The notes beneath the pieces were generated by a model. That model was given only the letters and a program-made list of their open reading frames with translations, was not told the origin of the DNA and ran no database searches. Shown here piece after piece: positions 1-23,800 of a stretch of 64,000 nucleotides of DNA. Origin of the DNA: Botryllus schlosseri. Lineage: Eukaryota. Position 1 is the stretch's first letter. Each line of letters begins with the position of its first letter. Both the position numbers and the translations under genes were made by a program. The stretch is taken from the NCBI GenBank assembly GCA_051294905.1, contig CM119372.1, forward strand, positions 16,866,001 to 16,930,000. Direction: 5' to 3'.

Positions 1-327
1 CGAGATTGATAAGGGGACGATGAGTCATAAAGGTTGGAAACTACTGATCTACATCATGATGGAACCAAGAAAGGAGAACAGAAATCCAAATTAAATCAAG
101 TATCATCGCCAAGAATTGTACCGATACTCGAACCATGAAGGCAAAAAGCAATTTGAGTTTGAAATGTTCATGTTAGTACTCAAACTCTTACAAAAGTTTG
201 TGTTCACACGTACAAGAACCACGAGAGCCATCCCTACATGAGCAATTGAGCATACTCCAGTAAGCGAGATAGGAATCTGCCACAACACCACAACGATGCC
301 AGTTTGGCAAGTCCGTGCAAGACATAC

Positions 328-16767: not shown

Positions 16768-17571
16768 ATGCTTCCTCACATCAGCAGGGTGGTCGCCACC
16801 AACTCAGGTCTGTCGCATACCGTTCAAGTAATCGCCCGTAAGCCCTTAGCTGCACCGGCGGTCTTGAAGGCAAATATCCCCGATGTCGTCCCGGTAAAAC
16901 CCAAGTCATCAATGCCGACAGGAATACCAAGCGCAACCGTTTCGATGTTCGGATCTTCCTCTGTAAGATACGCCCATTCCGATATCACCGTGCCCGATTA
17001 CAGCGCTTACAGAGTGGCGAAACAGGAGACTGGCAAAAATTTCCGTCAGCAAGAAGACGAAAGGAAGCTCAGAACGAAGACGTTTAATTACGCTGTTTCC
17101 GCCGGACTATGGATGGGAGGCGCGTATGCTGCCAAAAATATTGTCACCACCTTCTTGAAGTCTATGAGTGCATCCGCGGATGTCTTAGCTCTGGCGTCGA
17201 TCGAAATCCCGATGTCTGATGTCCCAGAAGGAAAAAGCGTTACTTTCAAATGGAGAGGAAAACCGTTGTTTGTGCGGCACAGGACACCGGAGGAAATCGA
17301 ACAGGAGAGATCGGTCGCTCTTGGCGAATTGAGAGATCCACAGCACGATTCGGAAAGAGTTCAATTGCCTAACTTTCTCGTAGTTATCGGTGTTTGTACG
17401 CATTTGGGATGCGTGCCTATTGCGAATGCTGGAGATTTTGGTGGTTATTATTGTCCGTGTCATGGGTCGCATTATGACGCGTCTGGCCGAATTCGAAAAG
17501 GTCCGGCCCCCTTAAATTTAGAAGTCCCGGAATACAGCATTATGAACGATGAAATCCTCAAAGTCGGTTAA
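16768..17571 (+). CDS. UQCRFS1: Cytochrome b-c1 complex Rieske iron-sulfur subunit, mitochondrial precursor (single coding exon)
   Basis: Intact 267-aa ORF with a basic presequence, TM helix, SASADVLA hinge, Rieske boxes CTHLGC and CPCHGS, and GPAPLNL. Confidence 0.98.
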
Positions 17572-17899: not shown

Positions 17900-20800
17900 A
17901 TGTCTCTTTACGACGGTATTGGACTGGATGGAAATCAAAATGCAAAGGCTTCTGGATGGTCCTCCAGTTTTACCATGCTGAAATCGCAGCTGGAAGCAAA
18001 GAAAGCTGCTTTGACCAAAGCGAAACACGCAAAGCATCGTCAAAGCAATCCTGTCATTGCTCCTGTGATTAATTTGAACTCGGCGATTAAGTTGGAAGAC
18101 AAAACTGACAGCACCAAGACAGACACCGCACCGGTTAGCAATGAGTTTGAATGTAATACTATTATTCGACCCATGACTAATTGCCGAGCTACTGAATCAA
18201 CCATATGGAATCCTGGCTCGTGGTATCACAAGCATGTTGTCAACAATTACGTGCAGTGGGCAGACAGCCCAATTGAAAAAGATAATGTCGTCTGGCCCCC
18301 ACAATTCACTTATATTGTATAGTTACTTGTGGTTGTATATATTGTTGATATATTTCAGTCGTCTCAGTCACTATGCATTGGTGCTGTAGGCTACTGCCAA
18401 GAGTCTTTGGTTCGTCTGTTGAGGCTCTAGGTTTACTTGCATTGCTAATGAAATAGCACTAGCACTCACATCCTTGCACAGCAGTTTGCCAATAACGGCG
18501 AAATGCATACAGCAAAACCCGATCTGTCCCGGGTGCTAGTCCTGCCACATCGTAAAATCAAACCTGGCACTTGATCAAAGTTCTCTTGAGCAATTAATTG
18601 AAAAAATAGCACATTGATTCTGGTACCGAATAGTCGTGTACTCGTGTTTTTCAAGTGTGACATGAAATAGAAGGGTGCAGTGATGATGTTGTTGCTTGCA
18701 ACCTATCATTGTTATGCTATTGTTCTGCTCGGCTAAGAAGCTTCATTCTCGATTTCGGAATGTAGCGACTGCTGTGTGCCGGTACGCTCGTTTTCGATCG
18801 CTTGACGGTTACTGTTGATGACACGTTGGCTTGCATTTATTTTCTCGTCAAAACAGGCAATCTAAAACCTGGATCTGTAGGTTTTCTTGGAATTGAAACA
18901 GAGGAGTTCTTTAAATTTAAATCTGTTCATAAAAGTTGGTCATCACTTGCTCCTTCAGTCCGAACTTGGTAATTATAACATAACGAACGACGTCTCGCTG
19001 TGTGAGAATACTAGACTCTCCACTTTACAGGGCTGTGATGTTGAAAGTTACTATCGTTATATTTTTTGTGATCCAGGCCGAGCCCCCAACGACTCAGTAC
19101 ATCGCCGGCGAGAATTTAGATCTTTTCGAAGACGAGTACGACCCTCGCTATCCGAACGAGTACGAAAAAGTGCTCAAGAAAATGGCGGAAAAGCAGCGGG
19201 AGAAGGACAGGGTAGAGAAGGAAAAGGAGGAGGAGGAACGGCGGAAAAGGAGAGAATCGAGACACGCCGAGAGAGACCGTGAAAGGGACCGGAGAGGGAG
19301 GGAAGATCGGAAATCTTTCGGTTTGTAGTTATTTACAAAATCTCATATATTTGTTCGGAAATTGGAAGCCATGGGACTGGAACTATGTTTGAAATATATT
19401 CATGCTCTTAAGATGGATCTTATGGAAGAATCAAAATTGTCACAACAAATTTGTACGTACGTCAAAGTTGAGTGCACTGTATTTTGCGATCGCAGCCGGC
19501 TAGACTAGACTTTTGCAAAATTGTTTGCCTGTTCATCTCAAATTTATTGTCGGAAAATATCTCGTCCGAGAAGTATTCACGATCTCTTCCGTCTCATCTA
19601 ATGTCTTGTAACTCTATTTTAATCGATCAAAGTATGTCACCAAGAACCTATCGAAGTATATCATTCTTACATCGACGTATCACAGTTGAAGTCGTTTCAT
19701 TTGTTCGCCAACAGTCTACTTAAAACTTGCATGCTTGCAGGGGGGCCAGGCAGTGGCTTCTCAAGACGCCCTCCTTCCGACGACGAAGAAGAAGACGATT
19801 ACGAGAGGCAGAAAAGGATGCGCATGTCTGCCGCTAATAAAGCGGCGATCGCCCCGCCTACGAATCTCATCGAGGAAGACAAAAAAGCGGAGATGCCCGC
19901 GCCTCAATTATCAGGTCTGTCTCTCGATGTCTTTGTGAGATCTTGCAAATTTTACCGTTGAACGCTGTGCATGGTCGGCAATTCGCGCTATTAGCTGGTA
20001 TTCCTGTACGCAGTGGGGAAAACACGGTCCTTTAAAATTGACACTACTCATATATTTAAATGCTGATTCTATCTTCAATATTTAATAGCTCATTTACAAT
20101 TCATCGATTTGTAGCACGCTGGTGCGTTTCGTTCATAATAAAATGGGATGCGGTGTAATCAATTTCCATGTATCGGCTAATACGCACATTTTGCTCAATT
20201 TTTTGTCCTAAAATCAGGGTTGCGTATTATACATGGGTACAAGAGTTTTAAAAAGATTTCCCCCGACATAAAACTTGCAATTACACCTTTCCCCTTGTTT
20301 GTTGTCAATCGCGCATCACATCGTGCCTTGACTCGGATGGCAATGGATGGCAATCTGATTACCGCACCTATTTTCCACATCTGATAGGTATAATTGACTT
20401 GTTTTCACCCATTAAAAGGGTGTTGAAGTATCGTTTGCCTGGTTTACAACTAGGGCTGGGCAAAATCGAGTACCTGAGTGATTCGATTCTGAATCACGTA
20501 AAATGCTTCGAGTCGAGTCGAGTATTCGAGTATCACTCATTATGATGTCACAACAGAATGTACTATGCCAAAGTTCAAATATCTACCTTTTATGCCACCA
20601 CGCAGAACATAATGCCTGCTACCCGTCACATTAAATATACTTTGGTAATTTTTCAACCATACCGACTTCATTGCCCTTCTTGACAATGTCGTGGAACGAT
20701 CATGACTTCGGAAATGTGTTATTTCCAGTCATGATCGTAGCTTTGTACTATGTCTATTATGCTACGACACGGCCAATCAAGGTTTCAAGGCTTCCTCAGT

Positions 20801-23800
20801 GGAAAATATTATCAAAAATAGAATTCTCGTTAGTTAATTAACTTTCAGTTGCGAGGAGCGTATATTTTCAGTACTCGAAAAAATCGTCTTTTACTACTCG
20901 ACTCGAATCATTAAAATTAATACTCGATTCAGATTCGAGTACTCGAATCATTGTGCCCAGCCCTATTTACAACCCACGCTATGGTGGACGTGGAAATATA
21001 GTTAATACACATAGATTTCCAGTTGTACATCTTTCTTCTCTGCTGCTTCGAACACACTCCATACGAACACAATGCTCTCGCATCAGACGCTTTCTCTATC
21101 ACCTGCTCGAGTGCTCGTACAGGGGGTGCGTAATATACATACATGGGTACAGGAGTTTTTTCCCGTTTATCATGCCATTTTAATGGTACAGCTTCTTGGA
21201 GGTACAGAACTTCAATATACAATTGAATAGTATATTCATATTGAAATAAACCCGAATATTTTCGGCTGACACTCGTCAGGGGTAATCGTCAGCAACTAGT
21301 AGAGAATTGGAAAGAACATTGTATCACAAAATATGACGTCACCAGCATGAAAGAGAGAGCGTTCAATTTACTATTTTTAGGGGGTACACGAACTCATTTT
21401 ATTGACAGAGTTTGGATTGGTGTATTTTGATAAGAGTTGACTCCTAGGCACACAAATGGAAGTGTGAACAGCCCGTCCCAACGACGCGAAATCTGTCATC
21501 TCAATCGATCTGTCATCGCGTCGTTGAGAGGGGCTGACTAGTTGCTGACGATTACCCCTGACGAGTGTCAGCCGAAAATATTCAGGTATATTTCAATATG
21601 AATATACTATTCAATTGTACATTTGAAGGGTGCGTATTATACATGGAAAATTACGGCATTTCTTTTGCGACGGGTGTCAGTTCTGCCGGTTAGTTAGAAT
21701 CACTGAGTACGCGTCTGCGTGTATTTGTCGTGATGTCAATTTTTCGTGATCGAGACATATATATTTGCCCCACGCATTCGTTTTGACTCTGACTGTTCGT
21801 TCAGGCGGCGCAGGCACCCAGTTTGCTCACAACCTCGCCGGTTCCGTCGCCCACAAAATCATGTCTCGCTACGGCTTCAAGGAAGGTCAAGGGCTTGGCA
21901 AGGGCAACAGAGGCATCAGCCATGCGCTGCAGGTATTTCGAAGGATCGCGCAGTGCTCGAGGGTGCAGCCCTGATGTCGGTGTTGGCGTGCGATTCAGGT
22001 GGAGAAGACTAGCAAGCGTGGCGGGAAGATCATATCGAGCGCGCAAATCGAGAAGCAGATCGAGGACGAGAAGAGGAAGGAGCAGGAGGAACGGGAGAGC
22101 GTCGCCAACCTGTTGAAGAATCCGACCAAGGTACTGTGCCATTGGTTGTCAGTGCATTCAGCACTTGGTGAATTTGGCATTAGAAATGAATGACTATAAT
22201 TATATGAAAGTGATGCATAAATATTATTATTAAATCAGAAAATGAATGTTTCACCGAGTGTGACCGTGAATTTTGGTGGCCAGCACTTGGTGTTTATATA
22301 TCAATGTATTCGGGTACGGGTAGGTAGGAGTAGGTGGGGATTAGGATTAGGGGTCGACAAGTGTCTAATTCAGCAAATGCTGGATTCTCTAGTAATCTTG
22401 GCGTTAATTGCGGCTGCTAGCCAAACAGGGAATGCGCAATTTGACAAACGCTTAAGCGATTTAAGCATTGCCGATGTTTCTGTGATGCACAGGACAGGAT
22501 GCTGTTCAAATCTCTCGAAAGCAAGCGGGGTTGCTCAAAGTGCACTGAGTAGCGAGTACTGTTAAAAAGTATACGGTGGAAAATACGTCTCGTGGTCTGA
22601 TTAGTTTAAATTGGCTTGCGATAAGTTGAAAAATTCTAGGCTCTATCCCCGTGACGAACTATTGCATGCGTTTTTTACGTTCTATTCTGAAGCTATGTTC
22701 GGCTTGTGATTAAGGACCTGCTGTCCGTTACTCTTTCACAAATATGAGAACTATGTGCGAACAGATGTGTTTTGACATGTAAAAGATGGCCCTGAGTAGT
22801 TTGTCATCAAATGGTGCGCCATAGTGGAAAAATTGTACTTCCTTTCTCTGAAAATGTGCGTCCTCATTACCAATTCAGTATTCAGTGTGACGCCTGGATA
22901 AGAGGTTGCCAGTAACCAAATGTTTACACTTGGCAATTCGAAAAATATAAAGATATTTTTGCATACGTTTTTATCACCTTTTTGAGTGGACGGCTGCGTG
23001 AAATAGGCTCTGAATATTTATTTCTCATGTCTGATTATTTGTTTCAATCATGTTTTTCGAAGATTGTACCTATTAGCGATAGTAGTTATTAGTCATTTAG
23101 TGCTAGTCGCAACTGTGCGTCTTGCAATCTCGAATAGAGCAACCACCGATGAACCGCTACAAGGATGAGACGACGTGACTGCAACATGCGACAACTACAC
23201 ATTTAAACACCTACTCGATTAATTTTCAAGACTTCGTATTCTACTTCTACTTCAGTGGTTTCCAACCTTTTTCGACTCGTCACGCCCTCACCTATCTCGA
23301 CACAAGTTTTCGCCCCCCCCCCCCATATTTATGGATCCGAAAAAGAAGACGTTTAGACGGGAAATTTATTGACCTAACTCTGATCGCTGGTGAATTTACT
23401 AAAAACGGGCCATTTTTTCGAAGTGTTGTGTGCTCGGGAAACCGGTTTGCATGCCCACTTTCCTTTGAGTTGACCTTTTTTTCTCGCTATATGCAGAATA
23501 AGCCATCTTCACATGCATTTTTTGGTAATGGCAGTTTAAACATTTTCGCCCCCTTGTTTCTCAAAATCGGTTGGGGTGCGATATCGTTCATGTTGGGAAC
23601 CACCGTTCTACTGGATTTAGTTTTGGCATGTCTCGGTAGCCACTACTTATGATGGAGTTGAAATTCAGACATTACTTTTAATCGAGTAGCAAAGCTGAAT
23701 ACTTTGACCACCATCTGTTCGTCAGTGATCACTGATCACCTCAGTCGACCAAACATCACAATAGATTTCGAAGAAATGACAGGTTCACGGTTTCAGTGTG

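Follow-up and report, generated by a model that had tools for sequence, protein, structure and literature searches.

The insertion in an intron of RBM17

The analysed window was a stretch of 64,000 nucleotides from Botryllus schlosseri (contig CM119372.1), in which an inverted pair of hammerhead ribozyme motifs had been predicted in the third intron of RBM17. The host gene was identified by its last exon, which matched splicing factor 45 (SPF45/RBM17) in the PDB with an E of about 7e-22; it was located on the + strand, and the intron bearing the insert was the third according to our own reading of the exons. RNA reads gave thin coverage over the exons flanking this intron. Another exon (window 17000-17570), which ended some 330 bp upstream of the start codon of RBM17, had a motif that we took to be Rieske iron-sulfur-like.

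The insert was surrounded by an older repeat (20163-21656), presumably a Tc1/mariner-like MITE, which had 15 paralogues and whose terminal inverted repeats (20163-20187 and 21630-21649) matched imperfectly. A second high-copy element at 20437-20979, bounded by inverted ends of 30 nt (80%) and containing a further inverted pair of 17 nt, also lay within this older repeat, and thus the RBM17 intron was a nest of three elements.

The two inverted arms of 83 bp were borne out: 21218-21300 and 21537-21619 differed by exactly two mismatches (21249/21588 and 21253/21584), and repeat comparison gave an inverted pair of 87 nt at 97%. However, the bounds 21218..21619 were too narrow, since the inserted Penelope-like element (PLE) sequence actually covered 21190-21619 and its left copy was 28 nt longer. 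Nor was the spacer neutral: 21301-21505 was element sequence that included a remnant of the GIY-YIG C-terminus. The reference for the insert alignment was a natural full-length tandem unit (L096), and the resulting features are listed in Table 1. Namely, the left copy, read from 21505 to 21190 on the minus strand, contained the end of the ORF, the 3' non-coding part, the hammerhead, the start of the next ORF and the tail.

Table 1. Features of the insert and its borders (window positions; hammerheads and their pairings are predicted)
Feature	Position	Strand	Remarks
Left target-site duplication copy CATTTTAA	21176-21183	+	15 uninterrupted host-repeat paralogues compared
6 extra bases between duplication and element tail	21184-21189	+	
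Left 5'-truncated PLE copy	21190-21505	-	292/338 identical, 22 gap columns, versus tandem unit L096
Tail extension, left arm only	21190-21217	-	28 nt; 18/19 family inverted pairs had one short and one long end
Element ORF ATG (MNILFNC...)	21237-21239	-	14 nt past predicted cut site; frame truncated here
Hammerhead, majority form, antisense to RBM17	21250-21293	-	leader 21293-21288, core from 21279, C17 21254
Decayed GIY-YIG C-terminal 44 codons, two stops	21369-21500	-	tblastn 77%, P0001 804-847, E 1e-14
31-nt junction filler	21506-21536	+	copied from adjacent element DNA: 21469-21489 inverted (21 nt), 21491-21500 repeated directly (10 nt)
Right 5'-truncated PLE copy, tail-less, sense to RBM17 pre-mRNA	21537-21619	+	alignment to L096
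Sense hammerhead	21544-21587	+	core from 21558; helix II G21565-C21573; palindrome AATATT 21577-21582; C17 21583
Leader GCTGAC	21544-21549	+	predicted partner: loop II GTCAGC 21567-21572
Right target-site duplication copy CATTTGAA	21620-21627	+	1 mismatch

Of the 15 host-repeat paralogues that were uninterrupted, most read ...CATTTTAAGGGTGC and had the target once. Since they carried a single target, and CATTTTAA and CATTTGAA flanked the insert, the duplication was 8 bp and not TA. This bore on the reading of the insert as a Tc1/mariner-type MITE with 83-bp terminal inverted repeats, a TA duplication and a hammerhead pattern arisen by chance. The TA at both ends of the interval first delimited and the arms that were 97.6% alike would agree with such an element, but the left end ran 28 nt past the TA, the partner ORF encoded a reverse transcriptase (RT) plus GIY-YIG, and the motif covaried. 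TA duplications together with a Tc1/mariner partner had been named in the original prediction as evidence against it; the duplication was instead 8 bp, fixed terminal inverted repeats with TA were not found, and this reading was refuted here and retains next to no probability.

The parent retrotransposon family

The 26-nt hammerhead core had 4,294 exact matches in the genome and its reversed control had none, so the match was not due to chance. A DNA search gave 2,365 candidates, of which 40 were scored. At 30 loci the 3' end was fixed and the other end was staggered by 5' truncation. In the longest copies, frames for RT and GIY-YIG were found that shared the strand of the hammerhead motif, and intact open frames of 857-860 codons were present in tandem arrays of ~2.7-kb units, each with one hammerhead motif directly before the ATG. 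The Penelope partner that had been sought was thus found in intact tandem units as an 848-aa ORF (P0001) with RVT_1, DKG at 270, YVDD at 519 and VVYEYRCHCDCGYVG at 725.

The GIY-YIG motif of P0001 contained two Cys between GIY and YIG, and its Pfam match was weak (E 0.004 on a fragment, below the cut-off, and none on the full protein). According to the available text of PMC8557442, a CX2-5CxxC linker finger marks Neptune, and there was no CxxC anywhere in P0001. By the criteria in that text, the two Cys and the missing CxxC linker therefore pointed to the Penelope/Poseidon type. We provisionally regard the parent as an EN+ PLE of this type, with a clade name given by motif criteria. Its layout was that of EN+ PLEs: tandem pLTR units, 5' truncation, an inverted copy, a one-ended tail and a variable duplication.

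The matches listed contained at least 120 protein relatives. The several PLE subfamilies with intact ORFs suggested that more than one lineage had recently been active. Multiple intact ORFs per subfamily were arranged in tandem or head-to-head at G000 C16:20.95 Mb, C12:24.29-24.32 Mb, C7:8.98-9.00 Mb and other places. The RNA reads from the pLTR came almost all from truncated copies, with a depth that fell from hundreds to ~0-2 past the tail.

Head-to-head insertion as the ordinary product

The inverted head-to-head pair was the ordinary insertion product of this family. Among the first 100 matches listed, neighbours within 5 kb were head-to-head (divergent) in 13 cases and tail-to-tail (convergent) in none. 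The 3' ends were bimodal, 36 of 71 falling at +54..70 and 32 at +90..107, with three between. Nineteen inverted pairs were present at 60 loci; 18 of them combined a short end with a tailed one, and a target duplication of at least 10 nt (up to 4 element bases included) was seen in 11. The inverted partial repeat previously likened to Penelope insertions was, accordingly, a pair of head-to-head 5'-truncated copies, one of them tailed. None of the 38 pair ends was truncated at the cut site (+27), a count whose ascertainment was biased against such short copies.

The original prediction of a non-autonomous ribozyme-bearing retroelement was right about the retroelement; the insert was, however, a truncated copy of an autonomous PLE rather than a member of a discrete family. 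The many small palindromic copies in the genome could suggest a discrete non-autonomous element, retrozyme-like or PLE-derived and MITE-like, that amplified in inverted form, and the available part of bioRxiv 10.64898/2026.07.22.740005 describes non-autonomous PLE derivatives. But the 19 pairs varied in junctions and arm lengths, only two other loci among the 40 scored of 2,365 aligned over the whole 402 bp (at 83%), and there were no short tandem monomers. Since the truncation points varied by copy and the interior was ORF sequence from the 3' end of the autonomous element, we consider such a family very improbable. A non-LTR retrozyme, made of short non-coding head-to-tail monomers, was also rejected: the tandem unit was coding and ~2.7 kb long, and the window copy was head-to-head.

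A likely route to such pairs is suggested by the available text of PMC11167929: the PLE protein would nick two strands at an AT-rich site and begin reverse transcription at two internal RNA sites. Priming on both nicked target strands would yield two fixed 3' ends about 35 nt apart, and hence the tail, and if both cDNAs ended early and were then joined, head-to-head 5'-truncated copies would result. In the tandem source elements the ribozyme would separate the units of the precursor RNA by a cut 14 nt upstream of the ATG, and this cutting would probably be slow or assisted by protein. Overall, we are highly confident that an autonomous PLE left two 5'-truncated copies here, inserted head-to-head, probably by two-strand priming, and now dead, and that each arm carried a predicted pseudoknotted hammerhead that would cut only as a dimer.

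The hammerhead motif at the locus

Both arms read CTGACGA-G-TGTCAGC-C-GAAA-ATAT-TC. As originally proposed, each held a complete CUGANGA/GAAA/UH core, with C17 at 21583 (+) and 21254 (-); the core nucleotides, the 3-8 pair, G10.1-C11.1 and an NUH site were all present. Helix II had 1 bp instead of the several bp of the published PLE consensus. The 5-bp stem I (TACCC/GGGTA) was wrong because it mixed a family base with an A that occurred in only 2 of 45 family matches; the actual stem was 4 bp (ACCC/GGGT). It was intact in the minus copy. In the plus copy the C.A mismatch beside the cleavage site was confirmed, as a G-to-A change at 21584 broke the first pair of stem I. The change, which is of CpG type, was also found in 38 other copies. 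Counted as 44-mers, the majority form of the minus copy occurred 2,539 times in the genome and the plus variant 39 times.

The Rfam check of the arms gave four irrelevant matches and no hammerhead up to E=10, and the hammerhead call therefore rests on motif and covariation. The original assignment to type I minimal hammerheads of PLEs was upheld. An upstream CTGACGA (21545) was rejected as the catalytic core: it paired with loop II throughout, and the second copy varied as C3-G8/U3-A8.

Covariation across subfamilies

The DNA before the ATG was collected from 20 further copies with 48-70% protein identity to the N-terminus of subfamily B. A recognisable hammerhead motif was found in 19 of them; L115 was truncated and two were decayed. 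Near-duplicate, truncated or decayed copies (L101, L108, L110-112, L114-116 and L118-120) stayed outside the counts. In nine subfamily representatives 94% of 72 cells were paired, compared to 16-44% in slid controls; these sequences, which are related to one another, served both to derive the structure and to count its pairs, and the control percentages are not probabilities. Within these nine, four of the six pairs of the predicted pseudoknot, which joins loop II to a run of six bases upstream of stem I, were compensatory, the 3-8 core pair was C3-G8 in four, U3-A8 in four and U3-G8 in one, and G10.1-C11.1 was held in eight. One representative (L117) fitted the predicted structure poorly.

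A metagenome scan added two loci of another source, with 51-53% protein identity, that kept the design with further changes. In the seven rows of equal helix III length, which included these two loci, 105 of 105 cells were paired and 7 of 15 pairs were compensatory, spanning the knot, stem I, the core and the palindrome. Across subfamilies the predicted pseudoknot had 4-7 bp and changed from GCTGAC/GTCAGC to CGTGCC/GGCACG and ACTAAC/GTTAGT; paired changes of this type would be hard to obtain by chance. Stem I covariation, which had been sought, was seen as compensatory changes in 11 representatives with stems of 3-8 bp. In 11 of 11 representatives the ATG was 9-24 nt past the predicted cut. 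The claim that the palindromic helix III (AATATT) suits dimers was supported by 6/6 pairs in six of the 11, 6/7 or 6/8 in four and 4/6 in one, with a weak predicted duplex in the window family (-0.2 kcal/mol).

Judged by comparison across subfamilies and with a second organism, the predicted hammerhead is well supported. The original caveat that helix II was a single G-C pair was correct in itself and was largely answered, since a covarying pseudoknot formed by the leader with loop II would explain so short a helix. Selective conservation of the core among genomic copies of the window family, on the other hand, gave no signal: core and flanks were similarly mutated (16/621 versus 88/2723 in 45 family matches). 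This is expected because the copies were dead, and lends no support either. The occurrence of the covarying motif in several subfamilies with intact ORFs shows selection on the predicted RNA fold in transposing lineages.

Two features of the subfamilies were also observed. One subfamily (L113 and L114), with open frames of 875-876 codons, had a UCGAUAA core that combined U3-A8 with a C at position 4. In L096, L098, L104 and L109, which belong to families A and B, helix II began with a GTG that was in frame with the ORF, which recalls the anole element with its ORF start at stem II; this frame was lost in several other subfamilies.

Comparison with known systems

Short-stem-III PLE hammerheads were reportedly described by Lunse, Weinberg and Breaker in 2017 and may include a knotted form. 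Both inverted pairs of pLTRs and hammerheads in PLEs have been published before, and only the 1-bp helix II with its predicted knot is somewhat unusual. The inverted-copy layout has been described for Penelope (PMC3846280 and PMC8557442, available parts), as have dual opposite-strand minimal hammerheads 100-700 bp apart (PMC4209133). As presented in the available parts of PMC3846280 and PMC8557442, the insertion units of Pen2a_Av-type EN+ PLEs have, like the insert, an inverted 5'-truncated copy and a 30-40 nt tail on one arm, and share with the window family a duplication of 8-10 bp and a pLTR that overlaps the first codons of the ~840-aa ORF. Unlike these units, both halves in the window were short stumps, leaving no ORF, and their joint contained a 31-nt templated filler.

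The PLE minimal hammerheads of PMC4209133 likewise have the CUGANGA/GAAA/UH core, G10.1-C11.1, a short stem I, a palindromic helix III, a U3-A8 variant and the opposite-strand pairs mentioned above. However, helix II is at least 3 bp in all 56 aligned examples, for which the descriptor demanded a stem, whereas the window motif had 1 bp, a predicted pairing of loop II with the leader and no extra base between A9 and G10.1. In the available text of PMC3088659, a hammerhead with a 1-bp stem II and a 6-bp knot cut at >1.2 per min. There, as predicted for the window motif, the pseudoknot fixes stems I and II, but that ribozyme is a metagenomic type II, while ours is a type I from an animal-type retroelement with a dimer-type helix III. 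Hammerheads with a knot-less 1-bp helix II are slow according to the available part of PMC13725137.

The green anole Poseidon (Frangieh et al. 2024, PMC11167929, available part) likewise has two internal RT starts that define the tail, an AT-rich target and a hammerhead at the junction of pLTR and ORF; its ATG is 26 nt before the cut, compared to 9-24 nt after it in the window family. A pseudoknotted PLE hammerhead with a 1-bp helix II was not found among literature titles and abstract openings, and the supplementary data published with Frangieh 2024, Craig 2021 and Perreault 2011 may bear on this.

Possible role of the motif

What PLE hammerheads do is treated as an open question in the available parts of PMC8557442 and PMC11167929. 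One rather doubtful possibility would be that a PLE clade swapped the long helix II for the leader-loop II knot and thereby gained a fast, dimer-gated cut a few bases before the ATG, producing an uncapped 5' end of the mRNA. Short-helix-II hammerheads make RNA 5' ends before the ORFs of some fungal RNA viruses (PMC13725137, available part). If this were true, the PLE hammerhead would take part in translation, and the idea can be tested because a single genome contains many covarying subfamilies. Moreover, PLE families considered free of hammerheads may hide the knotted form, since standard searches miss it, as seen from the absent Rfam match and from descriptors that demand helix II.

State of the RBM17 copy

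The locus itself was ordinary, being one of thousands of dead Penelope stumps, and the family motif is its useful part. Energy folding of single arms, with a model that excludes pseudoknots, gave z of about -0.9 to -1.5 and did not predict the hammerhead fold; the monomer favoured an inactive hairpin of core and loop, with P 0.83 when the leader was included and 0.96 when it was left off. Neither starts nor ends of reads piled up at the cut site in four RNA runs, of each of which 3-6% was read, and ordinary libraries rarely show such ends.

The energy model agreed with the original prediction that the plus copy would be sequestered by the antisense arm, as the predicted 83-bp duplex buried the sense core with P=0.999. 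Masking by this arm, which is transcribed first, is physically plausible. It had been further proposed that masking explained the tolerance of the insert, in other words that the inverted arm was retained because it silenced a sense ribozyme that would be harmful within the pre-mRNA of RBM17. Such an explanation is unnecessary and, in our judgement, highly unlikely: head-to-head pairing was how these PLEs inserted (the 13 versus 0 neighbours among the first 100 matches listed, and the 19 pairs), so that masking needs no selection, and the sense copy was single, with a stem I broken by a change common to 38 other copies. A same-strand partner for the sense motif was absent from the window. As the intact motif was antisense, and the sense motif was single, broken in stem I and placed in an 83-bp duplex, presumably nothing cuts here, and the RBM17 copy is likely inert.

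The insertion may also vary between individuals. In run X16, from another sample, a 764-nt contig spanned 21638-22187 and ran on for 182 nt, and variants at 21105-21106 occurred at equal depth (85.8) in the region 21025-21190, both of which hint at an allele without the insertion.
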